A stretch of DNA of 46,131 nucleotides, taken from the NCBI GenBank assembly GCA_964356125.1, contig CAYHHH010000010.1, positions 11,054 through 57,184 on the forward strand, read 5' to 3'. Origin of the DNA: an uncultured Bifidobacteriaceae bacterium. Its GTDB lineage: Bacteria; Acidobacteriota; Vicinamibacteria; Vicinamibacterales; JAMQPK01. This document shows, piece after piece, positions 4,271-38,170 of the stretch; position 1 is the first letter of the stretch; each line of letters starts with the position of its first letter. The notes under the pieces were generated by a model. The model did no database searches and was not told where the DNA came from. It saw only the letters and a program-made list of their open reading frames with translations. A program made the translations under genes and the position numbers.

Positions 4271-5061
4271 CGCTCTGCTGCAATCGTGACCGGTGAGCCG
4301 GCGAGCCTGAGAAGGCCGGCGCCGGCGAGCACGCGCTCGAGACCGCGGGTAAATCCGGCGGACCCCACGGCTTTGTGAAGCGCGATGGGCAGCACGAACT
4401 GTTTATGCGTGGAGGTGATTCGAAAACCGTGGCGATCGAGCTCGCGCGCCACGTCACTCGCGCGGAACACGCGGTACGCCTCGACGTTCCGGCCCATGGT
4501 GACGGCGGCCCTGCGCCACATCACCTGAAGCGCGGCCGCGCTGGCGATCGCAGGGTAGTCGAACACCAGCCGATGCCGTGTGACACGGCATAGTTCCGCG
4601 AGCGCCTTCCGCCAGTCCGGCACGTGCATCAGCATGCGAAGGCAGACTGCCGCGTCGAACGATCCGTCGGGAAATGCGAGCGCGTGGGCGTCGCCCTCTG
4701 CAAACTCGATCGAAAGCCCCGCATCGGCCGCTCGCGCGCGCGCCACGCTCAGCATCTCGCGCGACGCATCCACGCCAGTGACGAGCGCACCGCGCTTGGC
4801 CAGCGCAAGCGCCGCGCGTCCGGTACCGGTGGCCATATCGAGCACGCGGAGCCCGGACACGTCGCCGAGAAACCCGGCGAGCACCCGCTCCTGATCGTGG
4901 AGCAGGATGTATCCAATCGGCCCGCCAAACCGCTTCGCGTCGAAGCTCGAGGCCATCGCCGGGTCGGCGTACGCCGAGTAGCTGTAGTGATCTTCGAAAA
5001 GGGGACGGGAATCTTTTTCGGGTGGCGCTGGCGAAAAAGATTCCCGTCCCCTTTTCGCCAT
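4258..5061 (-). CDS. Class I SAM-dependent methyltransferase with palindrome-encoded N-terminus
   Basis: VLDMATGTG, GVDAS and FPDGSFD motifs; ATG 5061 overlaps the upstream TGA (TGATG). Confidence 0.88.
   Translation of the reverse strand: MAKRGRESFSPAPPEKDSRPLFEDHYSYSAYADPAMASSFDAKRFGGPIGYILLHDQERVLAGFLGDVSGLRVLDMATGTGRAALALAKRGALVTGVDASREMLSVARARAADAGLSIEFAEGDAHALAFPDGSFDAAVCLRMLMHVPDWRKALAELCRVTRHRLVFDYPAIASAAALQVMWRRAAVTMGRNVEAYRVFRASDVARELDRHGFRITSTHKQFVLPIALHKAVGSAGFTRGLERVLAGAGLLRLAGSPVTIAAERCAS
4995..5057. repeat. Palindromic element copy 1 (26-bp perfect inverted repeat, 11-nt loop) inside the methyltransferase CDS
   Basis: CGAAAAGGGGACGGGAATCTTTTTCG (4995-5020) and its exact reverse complement (5032-5057). 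Confidence 0.95.
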
Positions 5062-6224
5062 CAGGCGACCAGGGCAGCGCACGCTTCGCGCGTGCGCTGC
5101 AGGTAGGCCTCGTAGGTGTAGCGCGTCTCTGCGAGCCGCTTCGCCGCGTCCCCAATGCGCGTGGCAGCTGCGGGATCGGCGATCGCCTGCAGAATGCCGC
5201 GCGCAAAACCATCAGCGCTGGGCTCGGTGAGAATCGCGACCTCGTCCGAGAGCACCTGCGTGTGGGTCAGGAGCCGCGTCGCCACGATGACGCGCCCCGA
5301 ACGCAGGTACTGATAAATCTTCAGCGGCGTGTTCGTGCCGGTGCTGCGCGGCGACACCAGCACGTCGGCGGCGTCGAGATATGCGGGAATCGTCTCCGAC
5401 GGAAGCTCTCCGGTAAAGATGAGGCCAAGGGCGCCGGCCGCCTCCGCCTGCGCCTTCGCGCGCGTCACTTGATCGGCTTTGCCGCCGGCGAGCACGAATC
5501 GCGCGTCGGGCCGCTTCGCACGAACAGCCTTCGCCGCGTCGAACAGCAGGTCGAGCCCTTGATACGCCTCGAACGTGCCCGTGTAGAGCACCATCGGCGC
5601 TGCCGCGTCGATGCCGAGCGATGCGCGGACAGCCGTGCCGCTTCCTGCCACCGGCACGTCGCCAGAACCGGGCGCGTTTTCGATCAGCACGACCCGCGCG
5701 TCGGGCACCACCTTGCGCGCCGTCACCTCGAGGTGCGGACAGATGACGATGGTGACGCGCGATCGCTTGATGGCGGTGCGCTCGAGCAGCTGAAACATCC
5801 AGCGGAGTATTGACGATCGGCTGAACGCGAAGTTCTCGAGCTGCTGTGGCAGGCTCGAGTGCATGTCGTACAGGTGTGGGATCCCAAGCGCGGCGGAGAT
5901 GACGACCCCGATCGCGGCGCCTTCCTCGTGCGAGTGGACGGCGTCGTACTGACCTTTGCGCGCGCGGTTCAGCGCTGTCAGCGTCAGCGTCATGTCCAGA
6001 AACAGCTTCGCCGGCGAGGGGCCGATCTTGACGCGCGTGATGAACGGCGGCCGCGCCGCACGAAAAATACGCAGGCCCGGCAACGTAACGTCCTTGCCGA
6101 ACGGATAGGTGACGAGGTCCACCGTGTGGCCGAGATCGAGCAGCGCGCGGATGCGGTGATATTCGCTGAACGGCGTGCCCCGAGGCTCGAAAAACGGCTC
6201 GGGCGCGATCATCAGAATCCGCAT
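5061..6224 (-). CDS. Glycosyltransferase family 4
   Basis: Starts MRILMIAPEPFFEPRGTP (ATG 6224); YTGTFEAYQG and NTPLKIYQYL motifs. The upstream extension in the ORF track overlaps the beta-barrel gene and is spurious. Confidence 0.88.
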   Translation of the reverse strand: MRILMIAPEPFFEPRGTPFSEYHRIRALLDLGHTVDLVTYPFGKDVTLPGLRIFRAARPPFITRVKIGPSPAKLFLDMTLTLTALNRARKGQYDAVHSHEEGAAIGVVISAALGIPHLYDMHSSLPQQLENFAFSRSSILRWMFQLLERTAIKRSRVTIVICPHLEVTARKVVPDARVVLIENAPGSGDVPVAGSGTAVRASLGIDAAAPMVLYTGTFEAYQGLDLLFDAAKAVRAKRPDARFVLAGGKADQVTRAKAQAEAAGALGLIFTGELPSETIPAYLDAADVLVSPRSTGTNTPLKIYQYLRSGRVIVATRLLTHTQVLSDEVAILTEPSADGFARGILQAIADPAAATRIGDAAKRLAETRYTYEAYLQRTREACAALVA

Positions 6225-6232
6225 CAATTCAT

Positions 6233-7207
6233 TTAAAACCGAAGGCGCAGGCCGGCGCCCCCCTGCGGTCCGCCCGCCTTCAACTTGGCGTCGCCGGTCG
6301 CCTCGGTCGGCAGGTCGAGTGAGGCGCTGGCGAAGCGCGCGAATCCGCCGACACCGATGCCGACGCCTTTGATGGTGCGCACCACGTACGTGCCGTCGAC
6401 GCCAATGTTGAAGCCGACCGGGCTGTCTTTCACATCGGTCAGGCTCACGGTCCTGATGCTCAGGTTGTTGAACGGCGCGGGGTCGACGATGTCCTGGGGC
6501 GCCGCGACGGTCGCGACCGTCTGTCGCACGGTAAAGAAGGACGGGCCCGCGCTCGCGGTGAGATGAAATCTGCTCCTCAGCGCAAGCGTCCACGTGAACT
6601 GCAGATGGACCACATTCTGCGAGTGTTCGAGGTTTTCGACCGTGGCGGTGGCCGTCCGCGACTGGCCGAAGAGAACCGGATGCGGCACTCTCACGCTGAC
6701 CGACGCGTCGTTGAAGTTCTTCACTGTCGAGTACGCGATGCCGGCACCGAGCCCCTTCCAGACCCGCATCCCGGCGCCGATATCGAACAGTGTTCCGCCG
6801 CCAATCGAGTGTGCAGTCGCAAGGGCACCGCTTTCGTTGTAGATACTGAACGTCGAGCTGTCCGAGAAGCTCTGCTCCTTGTTCTGCCCGCCCCAATTGA
6901 CGCTGAAGAAGAAGCGCGACCCGTCATCATCCCCGTCGCTCGGCGGCTGCGGCTGCGGAGGTGGAGTCTGCGCAGGAGGAGTCTGGACAGGGGGCGTCTG
7001 CTCCGGCGGCGTCTGTGGGGGTGGAATCTGAGCGGGCGGCTCCTGCTCCGGCGGCGTCTGTGGGGGTGGAATCTGAGCGGGCTGCTCCTGCGGCGCCGCG
7101 GGTGGGGCAGCCGCGTCCGGGGCCTGGGCATTCACTGTTGGAACGGTACCAACGACGAAAAGTACCCCCACGGCCAGTAGCTTGAGAGTGCGCATCAGTG
7201 TGTCCAT
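6233..7207 (-). CDS. Probable outer-membrane beta-barrel protein with Pro/Gln/Thr-rich N-terminal linker
   Basis: Signal peptide (...TVNA), PQTPP repeats, amphipathic beta-strands, C-terminal GLRLRF (BAM-type terminal Phe). Confidence 0.75.
   Translation of the reverse strand: MDTLMRTLKLLAVGVLFVVGTVPTVNAQAPDAAAPPAAPQEQPAQIPPPQTPPEQEPPAQIPPPQTPPEQTPPVQTPPAQTPPPQPQPPSDGDDDGSRFFFSVNWGGQNKEQSFSDSSTFSIYNESGALATAHSIGGGTLFDIGAGMRVWKGLGAGIAYSTVKNFNDASVSVRVPHPVLFGQSRTATATVENLEHSQNVVHLQFTWTLALRSRFHLTASAGPSFFTVRQTVATVAAPQDIVDPAPFNNLSIRTVSLTDVKDSPVGFNIGVDGTYVVRTIKGVGIGVGGFARFASASLDLPTEATGDAKLKAGGPQGGAGLRLRF
6998..7082. repeat. Direct repeat, 40 bp x2 with 45-bp period, encoding PAQIPPPQTPPEQ
   Basis: ctgctccggcggcgtctgtgggggtggaatctgagcgggc at 6998 and 7043. 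Confidence 0.9.
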
Positions 7208-7303
7208 CCTTCAATAACGTAAATAAGAGCAAGAAGAGTTCGCAGACGCTGCAGCGTCGCGTGTGGCGCTCCGATAAGGATAAGTACCCGTATCGGGCGC
7301 ACC

Positions 7304-7354
7304 ATCCTAGCATGGCAAAAAGGTGTTGTACACGAATGAGAACTGGGTTATCAT
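7304..7354. promoter_or_regulatory. Putative divergent sigma70 promoters
   Basis: Plus strand: TTGTAC (7326-7331), 17 nt, TATCAT (7349-7354). Minus strand: extended -10 TGcTAGGAT (7312-7304). Both lie in an AT-richer divergent intergenic region. Confidence 0.55.
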
Positions 7355-7419
7355 GATTTACCCTCTAGGCATCTTCCGATGCCCCGACCTGTAGAAAGAT
7401 TTTTGTGGGAGTTCTTGCA

Positions 7420-8304
7420 ATGGATCTAAGGAAGATTGTGGCGTGTACCGTTTGTGCGGCGACCACCGCGCTCGCCGCTGCCGGCTGCGCTGACGGAACC
7501 GGACAGGCGTTGACACCAACTTTGCCCTCAGCCGACGTTAGCTCGTCGAATGCCGACGGAACGAAATTAAAGGCAGGCGTTCCGCAGCCCTTGTCGCCGC
7601 GGTCTTCGGTCCGCGTCTCGAACCTCACGCCGCAGCTCGTTCTTCAGAACGCGTCAGGCACGTTCGATTCGTCGGCGACGCTCGCGTATGTGTTCGAGAT
7701 ATTCGAAGTGGCGGGCTCGGCGCAGACGCTGGTCCTCAAGACCGATCCGATCAACGCGGGAAGCCCTTCGACGATCTTCAACGTTCCGAATAACCTGCTG
7801 AAGCTGAACAAGACGTATGCGTGGCGCGCCTACGCCGTCCACAACGGCGTCCAGGGCTCGACCTCGGATGGCGTGTCGTTCCGCACGCCGCTGCCTCCGC
7901 CCGTCGACGGACCGGTGCCGTGCAGCAGCTCCGCCGGCCCCGTGCTCATCGCGTGCGTCGGCAACGCCTACCCTAAATATCTGGTCTCGACCGCGGCGGG
8001 CTCGGGCAGTCTCGAGCGCCGTAAGCACAACATGGAGTTCATCCGCGATCGCATCATTGAGACTGGCATCTGCAAAGGCCTGGACCTCGGCCGTAACTTC
8101 AAGCGCGGGACGCCGGTCATCAGCCACGACTTCATCGTCTTGCGGCAGCGGGGGCAGAAGGATCGCGGCGTCGATATCGCGAGCGGGTATGACGACGTCG
8201 ACCGGCCGCTGAAGCTGACGTGGCAGGTGTTTGGCCCGGATCGGAGCTACGGCTTCCCGTTCTACGCGAAATACCCGTCGGTCGACTGCTCGGGCGTGAA
8301 CTAA
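7420..8304 (+). CDS. Lipoprotein: Ig/FN3-like domain plus unrecognised Cys-containing C-terminal domain
   Basis: RBS GGGAG then ATG 7420; lipobox AAGC; PQPLSP...YVFEI...YAWRA beta-sandwich pattern; C-terminal domain shared with the next gene. Confidence 0.8.
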   Translation: MDLRKIVACTVCAATTALAAAGCADGTGQALTPTLPSADVSSSNADGTKLKAGVPQPLSPRSSVRVSNLTPQLVLQNASGTFDSSATLAYVFEIFEVAGSAQTLVLKTDPINAGSPSTIFNVPNNLLKLNKTYAWRAYAVHNGVQGSTSDGVSFRTPLPPPVDGPVPCSSSAGPVLIACVGNAYPKYLVSTAAGSGSLERRKHNMEFIRDRIIETGICKGLDLGRNFKRGTPVISHDFIVLRQRGQKDRGVDIASGYDDVDRPLKLTWQVFGPDRSYGFPFYAKYPSVDCSGVN

Positions 8305-8308
8305 TAGA

Positions 8309-8368
8309 AGGGGCGAGGGGCGAGGGGCGGACAAAGCGAATGTCCCTCACCCCTCTTCCCTCACCCCT
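8309..8368. repeat. Inverted heptamer arrays (AGGGGCG x3 / CCCTCAC-type x3)
   Basis: Read directly; same family as 42117-42247. Confidence 0.75.
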
Positions 8369-8375
8369 GGTTTCT

Positions 8376-8384
8376 TGTTACAAT
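8376..8384 (+). promoter_or_regulatory. Extended -10 element TGtTACAAT
   Basis: TGnTAnnnT match about 140 nt upstream of ATG 8525. Confidence 0.5.
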
Positions 8385-8524
8385 AGAGCCATCCCCCGGA
8401 CTGTAAGCCGTTGGCCCCCCAGCCCTTCGGCAACTGACTAATCTCGCTGACAACTCGCTTCGATAAGAAGGCAGTGCCAGGTAATCGTGTGCAGCCTGCC
8501 CAAAGGACTCTGGAGATCTGTGTC

Positions 8525-9721: not shown

Positions 9722-9741
9722 TGACTGGGGGTTCGGAACAC

Positions 9742-9774: not shown

Positions 9775-9795
9775 ACTCCGGTATACTTGCCCGAC

Positions 9796-10731: not shown

Positions 10732-10754
10732 GCGATTTTTCTTACGAGACTGAC

Positions 10755-17843: not shown

Positions 17844-17902
17844 ACCGTTTACCGTTCACCGTTTACCGTCCACTGTGAACGGTGAACGGTCGACGGTGAA
17901 CG
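17844..17902. repeat. Inverted heptamer arrays (ACCGTYY x4 / GTGAACG-type x4)
   Basis: Read directly in the intergenic region; can fold into a long hairpin. Confidence 0.85.
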
Positions 17903-21409: not shown

Positions 21410-22679
21410 TCACGAGCTCGTCATAGCCGCTGAGGTCGATGCTGTCCCCTGCTGAGACCTTCAGGTGTTTCACGATCTTCCCTGTCGCCAGTTCCCTGAT
21501 TTCGATCGCGGCGTTCACGTGCGCGCGGACCGACACCGGCTGCTTGATTCCGATCGCGAGCGCGACGAAATCCGATCCGTTGGACGCCGAGTACAAGCGG
21601 TCAAACCCCTGAATCGGCGCACCAGGTGAATTCGGTTCATGGCGCGTCCAGTTCGCGAGTCCCGGCGGCAAGTACTTCTTCGCCTCGCCGAGCGCTGTCG
21701 CGATGGTTTTGAACGACGGCAGCTCATCGAAGTGCGCGTGCCGTCCAAGCTTCGGCGCAATGTCGGCCGCGCCGCCGCCGCGAATTCCCGGGCCCGAGTG
21801 CAGCACGTAGCTGGCGTTCCCCGCGAGAAACGTCATGACGTAGCCCGCCGCAATTCGAGACGCCGAGTCGTCTTGCCGCACGGAGCTCTCAGGCCCGATC
21901 GGCTCGTTGTTGAAGATAATCGCCGGCAGCTGTCCGCGGCACGCGCGATCGTACGCGGCGGGAAAGCTCCACGGGCGTCGCAGCGGCTGCAGCGGACCGA
22001 TCTTAATGCTCGCGGGGCCCCACCCGCGCTCGTAGTGGAGCGTCATCGCGTCGACGCCCGAGCCCGCATATGTGGCGCACGCCATTCCATTCCTCGGCGA
22101 GCTGAGCGCGACCAGGACGCTCGTCCTGCCGTTCAACCGCGCGCCGAGCCGCCGCAATTCCGTGAGCCCTTCAGGACCGCTGAAACCGTTCTGCCATGCT
22201 TCGTTGGCAATCTCGAACGCGAAGAGCTTGTGCTCACGCCCCTTCGCGAGGGAGGCGAAGCGATCGACGAGCGCGTCGCGCCCGGTGCCGGCCGGAGTGA
22301 AGGGCGCCCCGCCGAAAATCGTCCACTGCACGCGCAGGCCGTACCGGTCGTACGCCAGGTCTGTCATCCCGGCGATAATGGCGTCATAATCTGGCCATCG
22401 CGGATCGGTCTGTCTGTCTTCCCAGCTCGCGCCGCCAACCGACCCGAGCACGCGCACGTAATCGATGCCCGCGGCGCTCAAGATCTCGAGATTGCGCTCG
22501 AGCCTGGCACGGTCGAACTTGTAAGCCCACGCGCCCCAGAACAACGTGGCGCCAAGCGCGTTGAAGGGGCCGGCTGCGTCTGCGACCGCACGCCCCTCGG
22601 CTCGCACCAGGCCCGTGCGTGCCTCGAGGGGTGAGGCGAGCGTCATAAGACCGATAAGTAGGACAGATACGTATTTCAT
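21390..22679 (-). CDS. Secreted TIM-barrel glycoside-hydrolase-like protein (clan GH-A-like)
   Basis: Signal peptide MKYVSVLL...PLEA from ATG 22679; DYVRV, FEIANE (acid/base-like), TLHY, NNEP. Confidence 0.6.
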   Translation of the reverse strand: MKYVSVLLIGLMTLASPLEARTGLVRAEGRAVADAAGPFNALGATLFWGAWAYKFDRARLERNLEILSAAGIDYVRVLGSVGGASWEDRQTDPRWPDYDAIIAGMTDLAYDRYGLRVQWTIFGGAPFTPAGTGRDALVDRFASLAKGREHKLFAFEIANEAWQNGFSGPEGLTELRRLGARLNGRTSVLVALSSPRNGMACATYAGSGVDAMTLHYERGWGPASIKIGPLQPLRRPWSFPAAYDRACRGQLPAIIFNNEPIGPESSVRQDDSASRIAAGYVMTFLAGNASYVLHSGPGIRGGGAADIAPKLGRHAHFDELPSFKTIATALGEAKKYLPPGLANWTRHEPNSPGAPIQGFDRLYSASNGSDFVALAIGIKQPVSVRAHVNAAIEIRELATGKIVKHLKVSAGDSIDLSGYDELVIIGRGT

Positions 22680-27254: not shown

Positions 27255-29495
27255 ATGCCCGCAGCACGGCGCATCCCCTCGTGGCTGCTCATCGTCGCGA
27301 CGGCGGCAATCTGCGTGGGGACTCTCAAGCTGGAATCGGCCGACCTCTTTCCGCTCTGGCGGTTCGCGGTCCAGTGGAGTCCCGAAGCGCTGCCGAGCTC
27401 GCGCGCCGTGCCGGCCAACGAAATCGCGAGCGGCGTGCCCGTTCTCTCCCTCACCCTGAGCGATGTCGACCTGAACGATCCGGCGAAAGGGCTGCTGTCC
27501 AACAAGCGCGAGCACGGCGAAGAATGGGAGCGCGAAGGCAGCGTGTCGTACTACGAGGCCGGCACGCTCCGCTTCGCGTCTGGCGTCGGCGTCCGCATTC
27601 ATGGCGGGGGCAGCCGCATCACGGCACCGCGTCCGGGATTCAGGCTCTACTTCCGGCGGAAGTACGGCCCGCGGGAGGTACCGCCGGGCGTGTTCTTCAG
27701 TCCTGCCGCACAGCCGGTCCGCCGCATCGTGATTCATGACGACGTGCGGCGCGACGGGAAGATCGACTGGTATTTCGCGAACCCGCTGGCCTACGACATC
27801 GCGCGTGCCATCGGCGCCATTGCGCCGGAGACGAAGCCCGTGCGTTTCTTTCTGAACGGCGAGTATTACGGTCCGTTCGTGGTCACCGAGCGCTTCGACG
27901 AGCGATTCTTTGCGGCACATTGGGGCTACGACGACATCCTGCTCAGCCAGGCAGAAATGAACACGCTGTGGGACTGGGTCAAGACGACCCGCCCACTGAC
28001 GATGGCGAATGTGTCGCGGGATGTGAATATCGAGAACCTGACGCGATGGTTTCTTGCGGTGGCGTTCACGGCAACCAGAGACGCGTATCAGGGCCCCGGC
28101 CAGTTTCTCGACCGCACGAAGACGACCGGTGAATGGTTCTGGGTCAACTGGGACATGGACCAGAGCTTCCGCGACTGGAACCTCGACAGTTATCAATACT
28201 TGCTGGAGCGGGTCGCTGAAGACCGCCGCGGCCGCAACCCCGCAGAACCGCGCTCGGTGATTCTGTCGCAGCTCATGGCGGAAGATCCGCAGTACCGCGA
28301 CTATCTCAAGCGCGCTGTGCAGAAGGCGCTGAATCATCAGCTGACGCAGGCGTTCCTGATGGAGCGATACGAGCACTATCTGACCACTTCGATGGAGCTG
28401 CAGGTGAAGCGCCTGGATTACCTCCCGCGTCTCCGTCAGTTTCTCGAGCGGCGCCGCGCGTTCTTCAGACTGACCAGCGAGCAGTGGTTGAATACGACAC
28501 CGAGCCAGCGCGTGGCCATCGTCGCGCCGGCCAATGTCGATGTCCTTGTCGAAGGCGAACGCGTCAAGGGCGGCTACGACGGGCTGTATTTCCCAGACAT
28601 CGAGCTGACGGCCGATATTCCCGCAGATCAACGCCAGGGCTTTACCGGCTGGAGCGTCAACGGCAGTCTCGTTCCCGGCGTCGCGCCGCTGAAGTTCAAG
28701 GCTGACCGCGATACGCAGATCGAAGCCGTGTTCAACAACAACGTCAGCACTCGCGGCGGCTCGGCTGCGCCGGTCTCTCCGACAGCCGCCCCAGCATCGG
28801 CCGCGCGCGCGGTCTGGAAAGCCATACCAGCCGGCGAATCGTGGATGGGCTGCGTGCCGAGCGACGATCGCTGCGAGGAGGCGGAGAACCCCCGCGTACG
28901 CAGCTCGTTCGCACAACCGTTCGAGATGCTCGATCGGGAAGTGTCGGTGGACGATTTCCGCGCATTCGCGGCAGCCACTTCGCGCCGGATGCCGCGGCAG
29001 CCAGAGTGGTATGCCGACGGCACGCACCCGGCCGTCAACGTGACGTGGACCGAAGCCACGGCGTATTGTGAGTGGGCCGGCGGCCGGTTGCCGACGGAAG
29101 CCGAGTGGGAACACGCCGCGCGCGGCGGGCTCGATGGAAACATATTTCCATGGGGCGACGAGTTCACGGGTCAGGCCAACGGTCGGCATCATCTCAAGGC
29201 CGAACAATTCGATTTCACCGTGCCTGTCGCGACGTTCCCCCCGAATGCGTTCGGCCTGTACGACATGGCCGGCAACGTGTGGGAATGGACGGCAAGCGCC
29301 TTCACGTTGACGCACGCATCGGAGCCCTCTGCCGGCGGCTACGACCTGCGCACGATCAAGGGCGGCGGGTGGGATAACCTGGTTTCACGCCTCCGCGTCT
29401 CCGAACGCGCGGCGTTATCGAGCTCCGGCCGGCACAACCTGTACGTCGGCTTCCGATGCGTTCGCGAAAAAGGGGACGGGAGTCTTTTTCGGTAA
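27255..29495 (+). CDS. CotH-kinase-like protein fused to a C-terminal FGE-sulfatase (SUMF1-like) domain
   Basis: GVRIHGGGSR, FLNGEYYG and WDMDQSF (CotH); RLPTEAEWEHAARGG, PNAFGLYDMAGNVWEW and GFRC (FGE-like); N-terminal signal or TM. Confidence 0.85.
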   Translation: MPAARRIPSWLLIVATAAICVGTLKLESADLFPLWRFAVQWSPEALPSSRAVPANEIASGVPVLSLTLSDVDLNDPAKGLLSNKREHGEEWEREGSVSYYEAGTLRFASGVGVRIHGGGSRITAPRPGFRLYFRRKYGPREVPPGVFFSPAAQPVRRIVIHDDVRRDGKIDWYFANPLAYDIARAIGAIAPETKPVRFFLNGEYYGPFVVTERFDERFFAAHWGYDDILLSQAEMNTLWDWVKTTRPLTMANVSRDVNIENLTRWFLAVAFTATRDAYQGPGQFLDRTKTTGEWFWVNWDMDQSFRDWNLDSYQYLLERVAEDRRGRNPAEPRSVILSQLMAEDPQYRDYLKRAVQKALNHQLTQAFLMERYEHYLTTSMELQVKRLDYLPRLRQFLERRRAFFRLTSEQWLNTTPSQRVAIVAPANVDVLVEGERVKGGYDGLYFPDIELTADIPADQRQGFTGWSVNGSLVPGVAPLKFKADRDTQIEAVFNNNVSTRGGSAAPVSPTAAPASAARAVWKAIPAGESWMGCVPSDDRCEEAENPRVRSSFAQPFEMLDREVSVDDFRAFAAATSRRMPRQPEWYADGTHPAVNVTWTEATAYCEWAGGRLPTEAEWEHAARGGLDGNIFPWGDEFTGQANGRHHLKAEQFDFTVPVATFPPNAFGLYDMAGNVWEWTASAFTLTHASEPSAGGYDLRTIKGGGWDNLVSRLRVSERAALSSSGRHNLYVGFRCVREKGDGSLFR

Positions 29496-29528
29496 TGTCT
29501 GCGAAAAAGACTCCCGTCCCCTTTTTCG
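29465..29528. repeat. Palindromic element copy 2 (27-bp perfect IR, 10-nt loop) spanning a stop/start junction
   Basis: CGAAAAAGGGGACGGGAGTCTTTTTCG (29465-29491) and reverse complement (29502-29528); the loop contains TAATG. Confidence 0.95.
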
Positions 29529-31615
29529 TGCCCATCGGCGCCGCGACCGTCGCGGGCGTCGCGCTCTGGCTGAGCCGCGCGTCGTTCGACGTCGCCGGCA
29601 CCACGCAGGCGCCCATACGTGTGGCGATGCTGCCGTCGCTCGCGGAGCTCATGGGTTTCGTGGCGCTGGCTCTGCTCATCGTGGCCGGCATGGCGGCGGC
29701 CATCCGGGGCAGCCGCGCCTTCTGGGAACCGGCGACTGACATACTGCTTCCGCTCTTGTCGCTGTCGCTTCTCATCCTGCCCTACTTGCCGTGGGTCGCG
29801 GATTGGATACCGGCGCTGCAGCTCTTCGCTGGGCCAGGACGCATTGTGATTTGGATAGTCGTCGCCGGACAGGTGTTGTGGCTGTTTCTTCCCCAACTGT
29901 CACGTCACATCGGCGTGCATGCACCGATCGTCGGCCGCTCAAAAGGCGCCGCGCTGTTTGCCATCGTCGCTGTCGCTTTGAGCGCGCCGTTCGTGCTCAA
30001 CGCGCGCGCATTGCCTTCTGCATTTGTGGATTTGTTCAACTCAGTCAGGGCGCTCTCGTCGGCCACGCTGTCAACGGTGCCGGCGGGCGCGCTCGGCGTA
30101 TTGTTCGATCAGGAGTACGGCGTCGTCTCGTACGCGCCGGTGTTGCTGCTTGGTTTCATCGGCCTCGTTGGCATGCTTCGCGACCGGTCGCATCGACGCC
30201 TCGCCGTCGTATTGAGCGCGGCTTCACTCCTGCTGATCGCGATTCCGGCAACCGTCGATCCGTGGTGGGCCAAGTCAATGATGCCGGGGCGCCCAGTTGT
30301 GCTCCTGCTGCCCGTGCTCATCGTGCCTATCGCATGGCTGTATGCGCGCCTCGAGCCCGACTCACCCGCGCGTGCGGGCGCGCAGGCGCTGCTGCTGCTC
30401 AGTGTCGCCGTGACATTGACGCTCGTGGTCTTTAATCCCCGCGTTCCGGCACTGCAGGAAGGCGATGGCTCGTCGTCGCTGCTTCAGTGGATGTCTCCCA
30501 CGTGGCAATTGTGGCGCGAGGCCCCGACGTTTGTGGCGGGTGCGTCGCGCGCGTCTTCAATACGTCTGCTGTTATGGCTGACCGCTTTCGGCATCGTTTA
30601 CTGGATGCTCGCGCGGCGATCGGCGCTGGCGAACGGCCGGGCGGCGCTTGCCACGACACTGAGCGGAGCGATCGTGTGCGTCGCGGTCGCCACCATCAGC
30701 GCTGCGGTTGTGCCGGACGCGGCGAGGCCGTTCGAAGCCGAGGGACGCGTGATGTTTCCTTTGCTCGAGACCTTCGATCCGATCGCGCGTCCGAACGCGC
30801 TCCGCTTCGACGAACTGTCTCTCGTCGAGCCTGGTGAGCTGCCGCCGCTGTTCGTCGCCTCTGCGGTGCCTGGACAGCGGACCGATCGGCAGCCCGTTCG
30901 TGTGGTGTTGAACGCGCGGTTCCGTTTGCCGGCGGGCCGTTATGTGCTCGATCTGAAAGGATCAGAGGCCGCCGGCTCGATGCCGGCGGCCTCGATGTCG
31001 CTGCAACTTGGCCGCGAAGGCCGGCCGGTCGAAAGCTGGCCGCTGGCCGTGCGCCCGGGTGAGCACAGTCAACACGAGTTCGACGTACCTCTCGATGCCG
31101 AATTCGTCGGGTTCCGCGCGACCAGGCAGGCCGAGCAGGCGATCGCTGAGCTTCGTATCAGCGCCCGCACTATCGTCGAGACGCGCAAACGATTCCCCGC
31201 GGGGACGGTCCTTTCGGCGGCGGCCTTTCCCCCGGCGCGCATCTTCTTTCACGACAGTTCGGCGTACCCCGAAGCCGGGGGATTCTGGGTGAGAGGCCGT
31301 ACGACAGTGCGGATGACGCTATTGAAGGTGAGGGAAAGCGATCCTGCCGTGCTGCTCGCCATTCACAGTGGCGCGCGCCCGAACGTGGTAACGCTCGCGG
31401 CGCCAGGCTGGTCGCAGAAGCTCGAACTGGTGCCAGGCGTCACGCAGCGGGTCATGGTGCCGTCCAACGTTGGCGAGCGGTTCATTCCGCTGACGATCTC
31501 GAGCGCCGATGGATTCGTTCCGGCAGACGTCGAACAGAGACGCGATCGCCGGCTCTTGGGCGCATGGATCGCGTTTATCCCCGACGATATCGCCAGAACG
31601 TCCGCAGCCCCCTGA
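29495..31615 (+). CDS. Multi-TM membrane protein with extracytoplasmic C-terminal domain, GT-C-related
   Basis: ATG 29495 overlaps the upstream TAA; many TMs; [13 protein letters not shown] and WW...PGR motifs. Confidence 0.65.
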
Positions 31616-32276: not shown

Positions 32277-33043
32277 CGCCGCTCCAGCTCGCGCAGGTAC
32301 GCCTCGAGACGCCGGCGATCGTCGGGCGTGTTGATGCCGACGGCTTCCAGATCGTTTGTCGCGGGACACGTCAACACCGAATGCCCACGCTGCACCAGCC
32401 ACGGGAGAAACGGCAGAAAATTTCTCTCGCGCGTCGCAGCCGCCTGGATCGCCTCGCTGCTGAACGTCGGCAGCAGGTTGAAGTACGCATCCGGCGAGAG
32501 CGAGAACAGACCCATATCGCTTTCGCCCACCTCAGGCATGTCGTCACCCTCACGCCGCTCACGGATGGCCGCGATCCGTCCGGACATGTCGCGCTCAAAG
32601 TGAATGTACGGTGGCGCCTGGCGCGAGGTGGGAAAGATGGCGGACGCATCCGTACGCTCCTGAGACAACCGGCGCAGAGTGGAAATCGTGTCCGGATGCA
32701 CCCCGATTTGATCGCACCACGTAATCCAGACACGCGAGGCGGCGCGCTGATGGACAGCATCCGACGCAAGCAGAATCGCATCGAGCATGCCCGTCGGCTC
32801 AGGCTGCTGCGCGTACTGCACGTCGAGCGCGGGTGCCATCTGCTCCACGTGCCGTCTCACTTGCGCTTCGAACGACGGATGCACGACCAGCACGACGCGC
32901 TGCACGGCGTGCCGGTAGCGATCGAACAAGTGATCGATCATCGCCCTGCCGTTGACCGGTGCGAGAACCTTCGGTGTGGTACTTTGAAGACGGGTGCCGG
33001 CGCCTGCGGCCGGGATGATTAAAACCGTGTCAGGAGTTAGCAC
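32273..33043 (-). CDS. Nucleotidyltransferase (GlmU-N / MobA-like NTP transferase fold)
   Basis: [10 protein letters not shown]...PKVL, QPEPTG, WCDQ, GINTPDD. Confidence 0.85.
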
Positions 33044-34997
33044 GCGGTGAGACTTTCAAATCGGCAGACGCCGGCGCCGTCGGAGCGGCCGCTTTCGGCC
33101 GCATGAGGCGCTGCCACGCGATGAGGGCGAGGGAGCGCAAGCCTTCAAGCGGCGTAGTACGGCGCACGCGCTCCGGCGACAGCGGCAGGAACTGTACCGG
33201 GGTCTCGATCACGTCTGCTCTCTCCGCGAGCAGTGCCGACAGGAGATATTGATTGGCCAGCTTGTCGTCGGGCGCCACAGGCAGGCTCGTCAGGAACGAC
33301 GCGCGAACGCCGCGCACGCCCGACAGCGTGTCGGAGATGTAGCGCCCGAATAAGAGGAGGTACGTCGCGCTGAGCAGGTGGCTTCCGAGCAGGCTCATCG
33401 AGCCAAGCACGGCATTATGCTTGTACCGCAACCGATACGACGTCTCGATATCCTTCAGTGAAAAGCGGCGGCTGCCCCACACTGCATCGAGCCGCGCGCT
33501 CATCATCGGCGAAAGGATGCCCACCAGATCCTCCGCGCGATACATTCCGGATGATTCGAAGAGGACCGCATAATCGAACTCGGCGTCGGCCAGCGCGCGC
33601 ACGAACGCCTTGCCGGGCGGCTCTGTCGCGCCGCGAAGATTGCGCAGGCCGAACGGCAGTGGCTGCATGAACACGTCGTCGAGATCGGCGTCCGCGGTGT
33701 AGAAGACGGTGACGTCGACAGCGAGATCTTGGATCCCACCGCGCAGCATTTCGAGCACCGACTGGCTCAGCTTGTTCAGCGACGCGGCGTCGTACAGCCA
33801 CACGGCGATGCGCTGGCGTCGCCGTTGCGACAGAAACGACTGCAGAAACGGCGTGAGCACCTTCGAGGCATCGTGCCGTCCGCTGACGCCATCCTCGTAA
33901 TGCCCGATGCGCACCAGGCGCGGGTCTTCGAGTGTTTCAAGATGTCCGAGCGGCACGTAGCCGGCATCGGCGTCGGTTTCGAGAATCTGCGGATCGTTGA
34001 TGATGTAATGCGTGATCAGCGTCGGCACGGGAAGCGGCAGCTTCCCCTTCTCTTTCAAGTAGTAGACGGCGCGCTCGACGATGTCGACCGCCGTGCTGCC
34101 GGAAATTTCCGAGTCGGCCTGAATGTTGGTGACGAGCAGCTTGATGGCCGTCAGGTTCGACGCAATCGCCCGGCTGAGGTCTTTGGTCAGGTACGACGGA
34201 AACAGGCTCGAGTGCTGGGTGCCCGGCGCGTAGATGATGAGATCGGCCGCCGCGAGGCGCTCGCGCAGCCGCGGGTTCAAGGGCATCGGCCGCGACCGCT
34301 GTTCCAGCCACGCCGCGCACTGCTCTTGCGACAGACAGCCGAGCGCCGCACGGTCGGCTTCGGACAGCGGCGCATCGATCAGGAACACATCAGAGATGCG
34401 GTTCTGCCGTTTCGCGTCGACAATTTCAGCCTCGCTCACGAGCACGCCGCGATCGCGCTCCAGCGCCACGAGAAACGCGTTCGTGCCGTCGGTCACATTG
34501 TCGATGAGCCCCGGCGTCAACCCGAGGAGCCCGCAGTAGTCGTCGACCGCGTCGTTGAACCGCCGGCCGCGGTGCAGGTAGCAGCCGGCAAACACTAGAT
34601 TACCGATCGCGCAATCGGAAAACTCGAACGGGCGTCCCGTCGCGAGCTCGCGTGTCACCGCGTCGATCCGCTGCCGCATTTGAGGCCCGCCCGCGATTGC
34701 CACCCCTTCGAGCGCCTGCAGCGCCTCTTCGCGGGAACAGGGAACCGGAAGGCGCGTGTCGAACACCTCGACGAGGGCTGTGGGGCACGACTTGGTCTCG
34801 CGCGCGACGCGCGAGGCGTTCTTGCGGAAATCAGACGGGCCGAGGCTGTCGCCGAGAAAGCGCCGCACTTCTCCCGTCGACGCCCCATCGTCGTAGCCGT
34901 TGATGGCGATCGTGAGCGCCACATCGGGATGCCCGATGAGCTGGCGCGACAGCACGTCGGAACCGCGCCCGCCCGAAAAGAGCACTACGCTGACCAC
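33030..34997 (-). CDS. CofD/YvcK (UPF0052)-like protein fused to a degenerate GT2-like C-terminal domain
   Basis: FSGGRG, YDDGASTG, GPSDFRK, IGNL and IYAPGTQHSSL (CofD/YvcK pattern); C-terminal VWGSR, ISDTLSG and ETPVQF (GT2 pattern). Confidence 0.78.
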   Translation of the reverse strand: MVSVVLFSGGRGSDVLSRQLIGHPDVALTIAINGYDDGASTGEVRRFLGDSLGPSDFRKNASRVARETKSCPTALVEVFDTRLPVPCSREEALQALEGVAIAGGPQMRQRIDAVTRELATGRPFEFSDCAIGNLVFAGCYLHRGRRFNDAVDDYCGLLGLTPGLIDNVTDGTNAFLVALERDRGVLVSEAEIVDAKRQNRISDVFLIDAPLSEADRAALGCLSQEQCAAWLEQRSRPMPLNPRLRERLAAADLIIYAPGTQHSSLFPSYLTKDLSRAIASNLTAIKLLVTNIQADSEISGSTAVDIVERAVYYLKEKGKLPLPVPTLITHYIINDPQILETDADAGYVPLGHLETLEDPRLVRIGHYEDGVSGRHDASKVLTPFLQSFLSQRRRQRIAVWLYDAASLNKLSQSVLEMLRGGIQDLAVDVTVFYTADADLDDVFMQPLPFGLRNLRGATEPPGKAFVRALADAEFDYAVLFESSGMYRAEDLVGILSPMMSARLDAVWGSRRFSLKDIETSYRLRYKHNAVLGSMSLLGSHLLSATYLLLFGRYISDTLSGVRGVRASFLTSLPVAPDDKLANQYLLSALLAERADVIETPVQFLPLSPERVRRTTPLEGLRSLALIAWQRLMRPKAAAPTAPASADLKVSPRANS

Positions 34998-35981
34998 TCA
35001 GACGCTCAATGAATGCGGGAGAGTTTCCGGTTGGGGGGATTCGCGGATATCACGAATCACGTAAATAGGCTTGTCCTGCGATTCGTGGTACGTGCGCGAC
35101 ATGATTTCCGCGAGCAACCCCATCGTCACCAGTTGGATGCCCGAGAAGATCAGCAGCACGGCGAGCAGAAGGAGCGGACGGTTCGCAATCGACTCGTGCC
35201 CGAACAGGCGCTCGTACGACAGATATACGGCGATGAGGAATCCGATGAATCCCATCGGTACGCCGATGAGGCCGAACATCTGCAGCGGCCGCGTCGAGTA
35301 GCTCAGCAGAAACTTCACGAGCAGCAGATCGAGGATGACGCGGAAGGTTCTCGACAATCCGTACTTGGATGAGCCGTGTTTCCTCGCGCGATGGTTGACG
35401 ACGACCTCGTCGATCGTGACCCCCATCTCGCTGGCAATCGCCGGAAGAAAGCGGTGCATCTCACCGTACAGCTTCAGCGGCTTCACCACATCGGCGCGGA
35501 ACACTTTCAACGAGCAGCCGTAGTCGTGCAGCTTCACGCCGGTCGACCACGAGATCAGCTTGTTCGCCAGTCCAGACGGCAGCCGCCGCGTGAGCCAGGG
35601 ATCTTTACGATCCTTGCGCCATCCACAGACGATGTCGCTCCCTTCCTCGACGCGCCGGATCATGTCGGGCAAGTCGCGGGGATCGTTCTGGAGATCGCCA
35701 TCGGCGGTCGCAATCAAGCGGCCGCGCGCGTGGCGAAACCCGGCGGAAAACGCCGCGGTTTGTCCGAAGTTTCTGCGGAAGCGGATGATGCGCCAGCGGG
35801 GATCGCGCTGCTGATGCCGCAGCAGCCGCTCGAAGCTGTCGTCGGTGCTGCCATCGTCGATGGCGATGACTTCGTAGGTGCGTCCCCACCGTTCGAGCGC
35901 CTCCGTCATTTCGACGTACAGCACGTCGATGTTCGCCGATTCGTTGCGGATGGGAATGACGACCGAGAGCTCAGGGCTCAT
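34998..35981 (-). CDS. ArnC/GtrB-like polyprenyl-phosphate glycosyltransferase (GT2 plus 2 TM)
   Basis: DDGSTD, RNFGQTAA, DGDLQNDP, HDYGC, GEMHRF, SKYG. Confidence 0.9.
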   Translation of the reverse strand: MSPELSVVIPIRNESANIDVLYVEMTEALERWGRTYEVIAIDDGSTDDSFERLLRHQQRDPRWRIIRFRRNFGQTAAFSAGFRHARGRLIATADGDLQNDPRDLPDMIRRVEEGSDIVCGWRKDRKDPWLTRRLPSGLANKLISWSTGVKLHDYGCSLKVFRADVVKPLKLYGEMHRFLPAIASEMGVTIDEVVVNHRARKHGSSKYGLSRTFRVILDLLLVKFLLSYSTRPLQMFGLIGVPMGFIGFLIAVYLSYERLFGHESIANRPLLLLAVLLIFSGIQLVTMGLLAEIMSRTYHESQDKPIYVIRDIRESPQPETLPHSLSV

Positions 35982-36003
35982 TAAAGCGCCATTATACAGG
36001 CGT

Positions 36004-36597
36004 TTAGGCAGGTTGACGCTTGCGCTTCCACAGGTAATAACCCACCCCGCCGGCGAGGACGAGGAGGCCGAGGACGAGCCCGACCGTGCGGCTATTCTCG
36101 TGGATGTAGTCGAGCGCCTGTTTGCCGTACATCACCGCCAGAATCCCCTCGCCGAAGTACCGCACGCCGCGCCCGAACGCAATCGACAGGATGAACGTCT
36201 TGAGCGGAATATTGGCGACGCCGCCGAGCAGCACGAAGATCTTGAACGGCGCCGGCGGCGGCAGCAGCGCGGGCACGATCAGCGCCATGGCGCCGTACTT
36301 TCGCATCAGATCGGACGCGCGCTCGAGGGTGCCCCCCTTGAACCGTTTCTGCAGCAGTGCATTACCGCCCTTGCGCCCAGCGAAGTACAGCGCGAGACAG
36401 CCGGCCACCGATCCGAGCGTGGCCATCGTGGCGTAAAACACCATGCGCTCCGGATGGTTGATGACCATCAGGACGATGAGCATATCGTTGACTTCGGGAA
36501 AGGACAGGAACGACGAGTCGAGGAAGGCGATGATAAACAGCCCCGGACCGCCCACACTGAGAGCAAATGCCTCAATCCATGCTGTGATTCGCGCCAT
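36004..36597 (-). CDS. DedA/VTT (YqaA-like) membrane protein
   Basis: FLDSSF, GSVAG, PPPAPFKIFVL and GRGVRY motifs. Confidence 0.85.
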   Translation of the reverse strand: MARITAWIEAFALSVGGPGLFIIAFLDSSFLSFPEVNDMLIVLMVINHPERMVFYATMATLGSVAGCLALYFAGRKGGNALLQKRFKGGTLERASDLMRKYGAMALIVPALLPPPAPFKIFVLLGGVANIPLKTFILSIAFGRGVRYFGEGILAVMYGKQALDYIHENSRTVGLVLGLLVLAGGVGYYLWKRKRQPA

Positions 36598-36622
36598 CCG
36601 AGATTACTATTCTATTCGCGAA

Positions 36623-38170
36623 GTGACCGATCGGCTTCCCAAACTGCTCTCTGCGCTCGGCCTGCTCATCGGAGCAGGGGCGGCTCTCATCTACTACCAG
36701 CGTGGTCTCACGCTGAGCCATTACGACGCGAAGGCGCATCTGGTGGTCGCGCGCCGCGTGCTCGACAGCCTGACACCGGAATATTCGCAAATTGGCGCGG
36801 TGTGGCTGCCGCTGCCGCACCTGTTGAATCTGTTGCCCGTCCAAATCGATTGGCTGTACCGCACCGGGTTGTCGGGCGTCGCGATCTCGGTTCTGTCGTT
36901 CGCGCTCGCGTGCTACGCCATCGCGCGCCTGGTGCTGCGCGTCACCCGGTCGCGAGTGGCCGCGACGATCAGCGTCATGATGTTCGCGCTCGACCCCGAC
37001 GTGCTCTATCTGCAGTCGACGCCCATGACAGAGCCGTTGCTGTTCGGTTTGGTGCTGCTGTCGATTTCTCTTGTCTACGATTGGGTTGAGGGCACGAAAA
37101 AGGGGACGGGAATCTTTTTCGCCGGGCCCCACGAAAAAGATTCCCGTCCCCTTTTTCGTGCCCCTGCCTTCGAGAAGCGCGCGCGCGCGAAGGCGGGGTG
37201 GGTACTCGTGCTCGCGTGTCTCACGCGCTACGAAGCGTGGATGGTCACTGCGGCCGTGCTGGTGCTCGCGACTGTTGCGCTCTGGAGGCGCGGCCTCTCA
37301 CCGGTCGCGTCGCTGAAGGCGGGCGCGAACCTCGCCATCTACCCCGTCCTCGCGATCGTCGCGTTCTTTTTCCACAGCTGGTTCACCACTGGCGCGTGGT
37401 TCGTGACCGGCGGTTTCTACGTGCCCGACAACATTGCGACCGGGAGCGTGTACGGCTCGGTCATGGCGGTGGTGTACGGCATGCGCACGCTGATCGGCAC
37501 GCCCCTCGTCCTGCTCGCGCTTGCTGGCGTGCTCGCGGTCCTGGTGCGCGGGTTGTCGCGCGCCGAACACGCGGCGTCGCTTGTCGTCCTGGCACTCGTG
37601 GCGTTGATCGCCCTGCCGGCGTACGCCTTCTTCAACGGTCATCCCTTCCGCATGCGGTACATGGTTGCGCCATCGGTCGGCGCGGCGGTCTTTGCCGGCA
37701 TCGCGCTGGGCATGTTGAGAGGCCGCTGGCGCCACGCCGCGGCCGCTGCCCTCGCTGTGTGGCTGGTCGCGACCGTGAAGCCCATCGACGCACAGGCGCC
37801 GATGGTGCAGGAGGCGCAGTGGGATGTGCCCTTCAGCGTGGGGCGCCGCAACGTGACGGCGTGCCTCGCGCGCGAGTACCGCGGCGAGCGCATTCTGGCG
37901 AGCATGGGCTCGCTCGCGCATTACATGCAGGAGCTCTCGCACGCCGGCATCGACATTCGCGACTTCGTGCACGAGGGGACGCTCCCCTACTGGCACGAGG
38001 CCATCGAGGCGCCGCAGGGGCGCGTCGGGTGGATTCTGATCGAGGAGCGTGCCGAAGGGGGGGACCAGTTGGCGAAACGCGTACGCGAGTCGTCCGCCTT
38101 CACGGCTGGCTTCGCACGCGTGTGCGCCGACGGAGGAGTCGCGCTCTATAAAGCTACAACTAGGGATTAG
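36623..38170 (+). CDS. GT-C (PMT/ArnT-like) membrane glycosyltransferase carrying an internal palindromic insert
   Basis: HYDAKAH, VWLPLPH, PMTEP, TRYEAW and RY motifs; probable start GTG 36623. Confidence 0.75.
   Translation: MTDRLPKLLSALGLLIGAGAALIYYQRGLTLSHYDAKAHLVVARRVLDSLTPEYSQIGAVWLPLPHLLNLLPVQIDWLYRTGLSGVAISVLSFALACYAIARLVLRVTRSRVAATISVMMFALDPDVLYLQSTPMTEPLLFGLVLLSISLVYDWVEGTKKGTGIFFAGPHEKDSRPLFRAPAFEKRARAKAGWVLVLACLTRYEAWMVTAAVLVLATVALWRRGLSPVASLKAGANLAIYPVLAIVAFFFHSWFTTGAWFVTGGFYVPDNIATGSVYGSVMAVVYGMRTLIGTPLVLLALAGVLAVLVRGLSRAEHAASLVVLALVALIALPAYAFFNGHPFRMRYMVAPSVGAAVFAGIALGMLRGRWRHAAAAALAVWLVATVKPIDAQAPMVQEAQWDVPFSVGRRNVTACLAREYRGERILASMGSLAHYMQELSHAGIDIRDFVHEGTLPYWHEAIEAPQGRVGWILIEERAEGGDQLAKRVRESSAFTAGFARVCADGGVALYKATTRD
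37090..37163. repeat. Palindromic element copy 3 (32-bp perfect IR, 10-nt loop) in frame within the GT-C gene
   Basis: GGGCACGAAAAAGGGGACGGGAATCTTTTTCG (37090-37121) and reverse complement (37132-37163). Confidence 0.95.

Follow-up and report, generated by a model that had tools for sequence, protein, structure and literature searches.

Palindromic hairpins in frame inside genes of a Vicinamibacterales bacterium: a probable REPIN/RAYT-type repeat family

Three palindromes at the locus

The stretch of DNA analyzed here (the window) comprises 46,131 nucleotides from an uncultured member of the Vicinamibacterales and corresponds to positions 11054-57184 of contig C10 in the genome under study (G000), an assembly of 4.80 Mb in 260 contigs with 64% GC. 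It carries three near-identical palindromes, each consisting of two long complementary arms, and all three overlap protein-coding sequence. They belong to a dispersed family of hairpins that probably behaves like the REPIN repeats of other bacteria and that survives in frame within genes. Other contigs of this genome are given below as C numbers, comparison genomes as G001 to G024 and so on, and individual loci, which include metagenome contigs (e.g., L200, L202, L203, and L205), as L numbers. Forty relatives were compared, 24 of which are in the same genus as G000 and are called congeners. The palindromes and the genes that they touch are as follows.

4258..5061, minus strand: coding sequence of a class I S-adenosylmethionine methyltransferase (Methyltransf_25/11); its start ATG (5061..5059) overlaps the upstream stop TGA (5063..5061) as TGATG
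4995..5057, no strand assigned: hairpin copy 1, perfect 26-nt arms (4995-5020 / 5032-5057) and an 11-nt loop
5061..6896, minus strand: upstream open reading frame containing GT4 / Glycos_transf_1 domains; its stop codon is adjacent to copy 1
27255..29495, plus strand: CotH + FGE-sulfatase coding sequence; its last 10 residues are encoded by the left arm of copy 2
29465..29528, no strand assigned: hairpin copy 2, perfect 27-nt arms (29465-29491 / 29502-29528) and a 10-nt loop; GAGTCT sub-family variant
29495..31615, plus strand: membrane protein coding sequence without a Pfam or NCBIfam match; the right arm of copy 2 encodes its N-terminus (18 residues)
36443..38170, plus strand: copy-3 host, a 575-residue polytopic membrane protein, with only an ESM Atlas lead to mark it as PMT_2/ArnT-like
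37090..37163, no strand assigned: hairpin copy 3, 37-nt arms pairing at 95% (37090-37126 / 37127-37163) with 0 nt between them

The sequence-only reading that first described these palindromes had located them correctly. When the window is searched with the 25-nt arm pattern at up to 3 mismatches, six arm matches are obtained that are exactly the three pairs, and the same pattern has no match in 100 dinucleotide-preserving shuffles of the window. The perfect core of copy 3 lies at 37096-37120 / 37133-37157. As RNAs, copies 1, 2, and 3 are predicted to fold at -48.3, -57.7, and -68.1 kcal/mol (z = -8.2, -11.2, and -10.2), and none of 200 shuffles folds as stably. The arm is free of stop codons in all six frames, as had been claimed, and one of the six readings is KKIPVPFF. 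A search of the whole window on both strands against Rfam gives no match at gathering scores.

All three copies had also been placed inside coding sequence. Copy 2, however, is not within a single gene: it spans a stop/start junction, with the stop TAA (29493-29495) and the start ATG (29495-29497) overlapping as TAATG in its loop. Copy 1 is read on the minus strand as 22 residues, which are residues 2-23 of the methyltransferase when counted from the ATG at 5061, and copy 3 is likewise read as 22 residues, in this case residues 218-239 of its host. On re-reading of the host open reading frames, the frames and peptides quoted earlier proved correct. The membrane protein downstream from copy 2 probably starts at the ATG in the loop, and the first part of the open reading frame at 5061..6896 is probably non-coding, to judge from its arginine-rich translation ahead of MRILMIAPEPFF. 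In the closest relative, G001, the CotH-FGE gene ends ...GFRCVR*, and MKKPPISFLAPICAAT is found at the position that matches the N-terminus of the membrane protein. Neither this membrane protein nor the copy-3 host has a Pfam or NCBIfam match, and orthologues of the copy-3 host are present in 21 of the 24 congeners. The earlier label of this host as a GT-C protein has no support from hidden Markov models, the only lead being that of a language model to PMT_2/ArnT-like clusters.

Logan contigs from two independent DNA runs (X2 and X5) span copy 2 with 0-1 differences. At copy 3 the contigs stop at the arms and depth heaps up there, as is expected of a repeat. One 151-nt contig from an RNA library contains a family hairpin, but its flanks do not fit the copy 3 locus, and thus it says nothing either way on the transcription of copy 3.

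The genome-wide family and its reading frames

Family members were sought throughout G000 with a 15-nt arm core, and inverted pairs or solo arms with 0-1 mismatch per core were kept. The three palindromes of the window proved to be a small part of the family, which numbers 25 inverted pairs and two solo arms (52 arms in total). Each unit reads A4-5 GGGGACGGGAATC T4-5, a loop of 10-13 nt, and then the reverse complement, for a total of 55-65 nt. The arms are near-invariant and the loops differ, with a loop of 10-13 nt in 21 of the 25 copies. The perfect stem averages 25.8 bp, and copy-specific bases extend the pairing beyond the conserved core by, on average, 1.9 bp on the outer side and 1.6 bp on the inner side, compared to 0.37 by chance. 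With 42-47 occurrences, 16-mers from the arm are among the most frequent repeats of the genome. Allowing up to 3 substitutions gives 158 core matches, of which 106 unpaired matches with 1-3 mismatches were set aside as background.

The arms are also specific to this lineage. A 17-mer searched at up to 1 mismatch matches 4 of 41 genomes: 27+25 arms are found in G000, a single pair in G005, and one arm in each of G013 and G019. No arm of the G000 type is found in the closest relative, G001. The sequence-only reading had noted that an A-to-G change in the left arm of copy 2 is matched by T-to-C in the right arm, which is correct. The same pair of changes also occurs in C87:1845-1897 and in the single copy of G005, and therefore it is a sub-family marker and not a private compensatory event.

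Of the 25 copies, 11 lie deep inside open reading frames (>200 nt within), 4 span gene junctions, and 10 are intergenic, so that 15 (~60%) overlap coding sequence. Open reading frames were called with a codon log-odds score trained on long ones, followed by Pfam and orthologue searches. Eight hosts of deep copies are confirmed by Pfam, namely a 767-residue ClpA/B-like AAA+ protein, HemC, a 1123-residue MacB/FtsX permease, an ABC ATPase, a GHMP kinase, PrmA, a 1129-residue DnaE, and a Methyltransf_28 protein; the ninth, the copy-3 host, is confirmed by its orthologues. The remaining two (C1:31321-32076 and C110:4011-5762) have no Pfam or NCBIfam match and hence are rated as probable genes only. 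The junction copies are copies 1 and 2 of the window plus C42:18315 and C87:1845, and the latter two are placed like copy 1, with starts read from G000 alone. Several intergenic copies either start 0-1 nt past a stop codon or are located between two convergent genes (C3, C11, C53, both copies of C64, and C88:14136), and the G005 copy is placed likewise.

All three frames are used among the translated copies, and the residues encoded by the loop are not conserved. The left arm is read as KRGRESFS in 9 of the 15 translated copies (binomial p = 0.03) and in 7 of the 11 internal copies (p = 0.04). This reading, which is the most hydrophilic one, is usually followed by five variable residues and EKDSRPLF. 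The bias is modest and points to a possible extra filter at the peptide level.

A few further observations concern single copies and other repeats of this genome. One of the background matches, C115:622 (1 mismatch), is a possible decayed solo arm. The solo arm at C129:12182-12196, a 21-nt match, lies in a 285-residue open reading frame next to a DVGTGSG-like methyltransferase motif, is read VGKDSRPLIV, and could be a half-deleted hairpin. The right flank of the C3 copy is unreadable, as a run of N begins immediately after the right arm (C3:20613 onward). G000 also carries three GTAG-type REPs, several tandem heptamers, and a second hairpin family (GGGGTCGGGAGGGGTTTT). The window holds inverted copies of a GTAG-tagged REP at 45986-46121 (GTAGGGCTCGACTTTAGTCGAGCCCTAC type), and GTAG repeats related to this type are the commonest 16-mers of the genome (40-75 copies), forming a classical REP family apart from the hairpin family. 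The second hairpin family, with the form AAAAAGGGGTCGGGAGGGGTTTTCG...reverse complement (C14, ~21560-21620), has ~30 arms by 16-mer count, and hairpins of the AAAAAGGGGTCGGGAGGGGTTTTCG type also occur in G008 and G024 within MacB and GHMP genes. Tandem short-unit repeats that face an inverted partner are found in the window at 42113-42255, 17844-17902, and 38163-38251. Their units are GAGGGGAGAGGGAA, ACCGTTT/ACCGTTC, and GGGATTA-type heptamers, the last of these directly after the copy-3 host gene; heptamer families of the GGGATTA, GTCCAGA, GGTTGGT, and AGTAGAA types are plentiful across G000.

Orthologous sites, mobility, and a candidate transposase

At several of the translated hairpins of G000, orthologues or solved homologues have a gap or an empty site, which shows the host peptides to be inserts, as had been proposed. 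The TGATG-coupled start of the methyltransferase is kept in 5 of 5 congeners, all without the insert of ~57 nt, and the G000 protein has ~19 extra codons after codon 2. In the ABC ATPase, G001 and G006 read ...ALAQ-NPE-ILLLDEPT, an empty site at which G000 is 63 nt longer. Compared to FhuC (7lb8), residues 170-193 of the G000 protein stand in place of 3 residues between the signature-motif helix and Walker B. Similarly, HemC of G000 has 11 extra residues relative to its E. coli counterpart (1ah5), and the clp site is 21 nt longer than in four congeners. The copy 2 site is of a different kind, with sequence of similar length in all congeners. G001 is without the left arm and loop, and it has MKKPPISFLAPI where the right arm of G000 encodes (A)+11 residues; the right arm of copy 2 stands where the downstream gene had native codons.

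The same sites were compared more widely in alignments with five congeners for each of nine internal sites and with eleven for the copy-3 site. In G008, hairpins occupy 7 of these 9 sites and belong to its own type (AACGGTTCCGGGATCCGTTTT) or to the GGGGTCGGGAGGGG type; the dnaE site has heptamer-type repeats and the clp site ordinary linker sequence. Most sites in G005, G024, G006, and G001 are taken up by hairpins of other kinds, half-hairpins, heptamer repeats, or decayed palindromes. The copy-3 site is hypervariable, and in 4 of the 11 aligned orthologues (G003, G008, G016, and G021) it holds a homologous hairpin of the type that belongs to the species in question; these hairpins are like the G000 arm at 15 of 22 bases (by our own count) and are read in a different frame. 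The G008-type arm forms a family itself, with 50+54 arms in G008, 25+24 in G021, 27+23 in G016, and 17+15 in G003. When the central 19-mers of hairpins were compared, 16 pairs from orthologous sites had a mean identity of 0.543 versus 0.508 for 96 non-orthologous pairs (Mann-Whitney p = 0.065), a comparison that included two wrongly auto-picked hairpins (HemC in G008 and MT28 in G005).

Two side observations bear on these alignments. Coding sequences of congeners hold tandem heptamers (GGGATTA-, GTCCAGA-, and CCAATCC-type) exactly where G000 has a hairpin, as seen in dnaE (L040, L041, and L043), hemC (L051 and L052), and the Methyltransf_28 gene (L192 and L194), which indicates that such sites accept several unrelated kinds of repeat. 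Also, matches to single G000 proteins are broken across several frames at some loci of G001 and G008 (e.g., L041, L047, L053, and L174). In these few-contig assemblies the splits suggest indel errors, and thus internal stops there should not be taken as pseudogenes.

Evidence for movement and for constraint on the arms comes in part from eight metagenome contigs of relatives, with hairpins that have the exact G000 arms and flanks that are 68-85% identical to G000. One of them, L202, is filled where G000 (C30) is empty. The difference has the form GTTAG|55 nt|CTA, runs from A-run to T-run, leaves the target unduplicated, and is placed exactly between two convergent stop codons. A second contig, L205, is orthologous to the C42:18315 copy at 85% identity over a 293-nt segment, and the arms have 0 of 52 differences and the loop has 2 of 11. 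At such identity, the chance of 52 unchanged arm bases is 0.85^52, or ~2e-4 by our own arithmetic. In a third, L200, a G000-type hairpin takes the place that a member of the second hairpin family has in G000. Within G000, the copies at C42:18315 and C77:16923 have 14 of 15 central (loop) bases and part of their flanks in common, as expected of fairly recent copying. Together these comparisons show, at the level of sequence, that the element can insert as a unit without target duplication and that new copies can inherit the loop. No insertion sequence with matching termini was seen near any of the G000 copies.

A candidate for the enzyme is encoded elsewhere in the genome.

C88:12752-13450, minus strand: Y1/HUH transposase gene, 232 residues, between purM and purN and antisense to them

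The Pfam family Y1_Tnp is matched at six places in G000, and the C88 gene (36.4 bits, cut-off 23) alone shares a contig with arms of the family. A solo arm at C88:12771 encodes the C-terminus of the transposase, ..PKKDSRPLFSPHT (in longer form, ...GRPKKDSRPLFSPHT), and a full hairpin follows purN, ~680 nt from the gene. The sequence-only reading had suggested a search for a RAYT or HUH transposase accompanied by the same repeat, and a RAYT-like Y1/HUH gene that ends in a solo family arm fits that suggestion. Among 25 aligned homologues, at least 90% retain the motifs HV.NR, YC.MP.H.H (with the HUH-type H.H), G..YQ.R, and RY.E.N.L.A.LV. Proteins of this Y1 group have a C-terminal GRPKK/GRPRK that is conserved across phyla (L070 1253-1300, which is the C88 gene, and homologues L090, L105, and L145). 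In members of the genus, the beginning of the flanking arm (CGACCGAAAAAG...) encodes this motif, and the end of the gene therefore generally overlaps with the repeat.

Of the 25 genomes of the genus, 16 have an orthologue of the transposase (E <= 1e-30), with identities of 42-53%. At 8 of these 16 loci there is a species-specific hairpin 660-706 nt upstream, and an arm of the same type is present at the 3' end in 5 of the 8. A quick tree (SH-aLRT supports, midpoint root, 70 rows, with rows dropped when the high-scoring segment pair was <150 residues or contained a stop) places the proteins of the genus in two groups that match the arm types, separate from a remainder dominated by Planctomycetota. 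In G001 and G004, purM directly adjoins purN and there is no transposase. The G001 junction (L195 1470-1500) reads AAAAAAGGACGCAGGGA, which is similar to the G000 arm and may be a scar, and the G004 junction holds a solo arm of the GGGTCTGACCCC type.

Interpretation and comparison with known systems

Taken together, these observations make it probable that the palindromes are a lineage-specific hairpin family of the REPIN/RAYT type (TIRYT-like), members of which survive in frame inside genes. The element would be non-autonomous: a Y1/HUH transposase of the RAYT/TIRYT type would act on it in trans while it is folded as a hairpin of single-stranded DNA, and the 232-residue gene between purM and purN, which ends in a solo family arm, is the best candidate for this enzyme. 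Since its arm is free of stops, copies that add a multiple of three bases at a tolerant place could escape purifying selection, and those that survive in coding sequence would be translated as an insert of 21-22 residues. Tolerant places would include surface loops, first codons, last codons, and stop/start junctions. At gene ends the hairpin is shaped like a bidirectional intrinsic terminator. Loops and flanks drift but the arms remain intact, and congeners have hairpin families of their own at the same permissive sites; copies might be either rewritten in place or repeatedly replaced. The proposal of a non-autonomous mobile hairpin that colonizes genes is thus supported by the number of copies, the inserts seen against orthologues, and the transposase gene.

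Selection also seems to act mainly on the nucleic acid, because 10 intergenic copies have the same arms, three frames are used, the frame shifts between congeners, and 52 of 52 arm bases are kept between species. The earlier statement that selection acts on the hairpin and not on the peptide stands in this respect, but needs to be tempered by the modest frame bias, which hints at a filter on the peptide as well.

Several points weigh against a REPIN/RAYT-type origin. Most intragenic sites lack a clean empty counterpart, as the hairpin stands for other variable sequence in congeners, and no joint among the Logan contigs skips copy 2 or copy 3, leaving no empty-site allele among them. The arm ends are A- and T-runs without a terminal GTAG or CGTC, with CGTC only internal to the reverse-complement arm (CCCGTCCCC). 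A single G000 arm is scarcely self-complementary, since only AAAAAG/CTTTTT can pair, whereas the congener arms AACGGTTCCGGGATCCGTT and AAAGGGGTCAGACCCCTTT are good palindromes. The C88 transposase matches the NCBIfam model REP_Tyr_transpos at E = 1.5e-15, but its 57.3 bits fall below the cut-off of 80, and a sequence search against solved structures gives no relative. No arm is found between the transposase start and purN, so that an arm is present on the 3' side only. The link from the family to this gene is accordingly less certain, being drawn from one overlapping solo arm. In addition, L203 has a hairpin with G000 arms after purN, yet its transposase shares only 45% identity with that of G000 and has GGGGTCAGACCC palindromes on its flanks. 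In G005, too, the palindromes around the transposase are of another type than the hairpin after purN. A hairpin after purN, once considered as a marker of the cognate transposase, was rejected on account of these two mismatches, which make it an unreliable sign. Finally, translation of the inserts is predicted from intact frames only.

A more far-reaching version of this explanation holds that certain permissive sites are fixed in the genus as long-lived "hairpin cassettes," whose arms are rewritten in place to match the dominant Y1/HUH-associated family, which would amount to a domesticated single-strand transposase that edits coding sequence. Such sites may include hemC, prmA, the ABC ATPase gene, the MacB-type permease gene, the GHMP kinase gene, and the Methyltransf_28 and PMT_2-like genes. 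The presence of hairpins at 7 of 9 sites in G008 and of unchanged arms where flanks differ by 15% allows this idea, which we nonetheless regard as unlikely. The loop identities at orthologous and non-orthologous sites (0.54 versus 0.51) agree with rewriting and with repeated insertion alike. If true, the cassettes would give many unrelated proteins the same lineage-specific tag of 21-22 residues.

There is only a slim chance that the hairpins are chiefly RNA elements of the host, that is, bidirectional intrinsic terminators or mRNA-stabilizing stem-loops spread by recombination in the absence of a dedicated transposase. Their GC-rich stem between an A-run and a T-run, the very stable predicted folds, the rating of copy 3 as terminator-like on the minus strand in a simple scan, and the positions of several intergenic copies and of the L202 insert just past stops or between convergent genes would all fit such a role. 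Yet 11 of 25 copies are deep in genes such as dnaE, hemC, and clp, where termination would harm, and copies 1 and 2 are within translationally coupled junctions. A terminator requires neither identity of 52 of 52 arm bases across species nor identical arms at 25 loci. Likewise, the clean 55-nt presence/absence difference, the arm fused to a Y1 transposase gene, and the lack of Rfam matches count against an RNA element.

Similarly improbable is that the hairpins are immobile now, being old insertions or local quasi-palindromes kept uniform by template-switch "palindrome correction" and gene conversion, with the Y1 gene as a bystander. Most copies do seem to be old, because loops have diverged in nearly all of them. 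Stems that extend past the core with copy-specific paired bases, the native codons of G001 and the similar length of congeners at the copy 2 site, and the occupation of the same sites in many species can also be read in this way. However, the filled/empty pair has exact borders from A-run to T-run, the C42 and C77 copies have a loop in common, and the closest relative is without both the family and the transposase. Furthermore, minimal homology lengths make RecA-type conversion between dispersed repeats of 25 nt unlikely.

It is highly improbable that the selected unit is the peptide, a KRGRESFS-x5-EKDSRPLF module of 21-22 residues acting as a tag, linker, or binding site with an incidental palindrome: one frame is favored in left arms and yields the most hydrophilic peptides, but the 10 intergenic copies have identical arms, all three frames occur, loop-encoded residues are not conserved, no palindrome is needed to encode a peptide, and congener hairpins at the same sites give unrelated peptides in other frames.

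If the REPIN/RAYT-type explanation is accepted, the family does not change REP biology. Rather, it extends it to Acidobacteriota and to coding sequence at an unusual scale. REPINs and RAYTs have been discussed as long-lived, vertically inherited replicators of uncertain benefit or cost to the host. The G000 family has most of its copies in essential genes, and with the same codon-level sites filled in many species it provides a well-aligned background on which to score how hairpins are gained, lost, and replaced. The family would also be a natural route by which proteins of an abundant, uncultured group of soil and freshwater bacteria acquire short in-frame inserts. For annotators there is a warning as well, in that perfect 25-bp hairpins in dnaE or hemC are neither assembly errors nor gene breaks. 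A literature search, which was not aimed at this taxon, found no paper on such repeats in Vicinamibacterales.

There are a number of known systems to which the family can be compared. It is like the REPIN-RAYT systems of Pseudomonas and E. coli in that inverted doublets form one long hairpin (25 of 27 occurrences in G000 are doublets) and that conserved arms flank a looser spacer in tens of dispersed copies with species-specific sequence. It also shares with them a single Y1/HUH gene overlapped by a repeat at a locus that is syntenic in relatives, and orthologous positions that keep a hairpin whose type follows the genome. In P. chlororaphis, REPINs are described as keeping their position and changing type to match the predominant RAYT (10.1101/2024.10.14.618302), and different REP classes have been noted around syntenic RAYTs (PMC3686654). 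According to a further survey, REPtrons can have repeats that overlap the 3' end of the transposase gene (PMC3733652). Unlike REPINs, the G000 arms have no terminal GTAG, are hardly palindromic singly, and flank the transposase gene on one side only. The transposase scores below the NCBIfam equivalog cut-off (57.3 versus 80 bits), and the overlap of 15 of 25 copies with coding sequence contrasts with the extragenic location described for REPINs.

The TIR repeats and their TIRYT genes offer another close comparison. TIRYT genes are flanked by inverted repeats other than GTAG, many of them with GGGGWSAS (Di Nocera, De Gregorio and Rocco 2013; PMC3733652). The congener arms GGGGTCAG fit this pattern at 8 of 8 positions and the G000 arm GGGGACGG at 7 of 8. 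The same account describes some TIR families as moderately abundant and arranged as dimers and gives Acidobacteria a TIRYT group of their own (PMC3733652). The G000 family is likewise dispersed as dimers; it differs in having intragenic copies, for which the available text on TIRs has no mention (PMC3733652). The likeness of the G000 transposase to TIRYT proteins is one of published description and not of alignment with TIRYT groups.

The sequence-only reading had drawn an analogy to Rickettsia palindromic elements (RPEs), which holds for behavior, there being by description no sequence relation; the closest families are REP/REPIN-RAYT or TIR repeats with TIRYT. RPE-1 is longer than the G000 element, and RPEs differ further in that the G000 family has a coding share of ~60% and occupies the same sites across the genus. 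Palindromic inserts in frame within genes of known proteins, with dnaE among the hosts, are common to the G000 family and to intragenic REPs and RPEs. In the survey cited above, intragenic REPs in frame are reported in genes of known proteins, many in replication and repair genes and including dnaE of R. conorii, and intragenic REP dimers encode 20-30 residues, many at N-termini (PMC3733652). RPEs of the CGTC type are listed there as having no associated transposase (PMC3733652).

[quoted passage not shown] As characterized in the same survey, MITEs are 70-300 bp, derive from insertion sequences, and make target-site duplications (PMC3733652), whereas the G000 element is 55-65 nt and its single clean filled/empty pair is without duplication. 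Bidirectional Rho-independent terminators share the A-run, GC-rich stem, and T-run, as well as the placement of some copies after stops or between convergent genes, and they differ in the identical arms at 25 loci, the 11 copies deep in genes, the presence/absence difference, and the link to a transposase. Overall, each element of this picture is already known from one system or another, and the G000 family is set apart by its lineage, its arm sequence, its coding share of 15 in 25 copies, and the recurrent intragenic sites across the genus.

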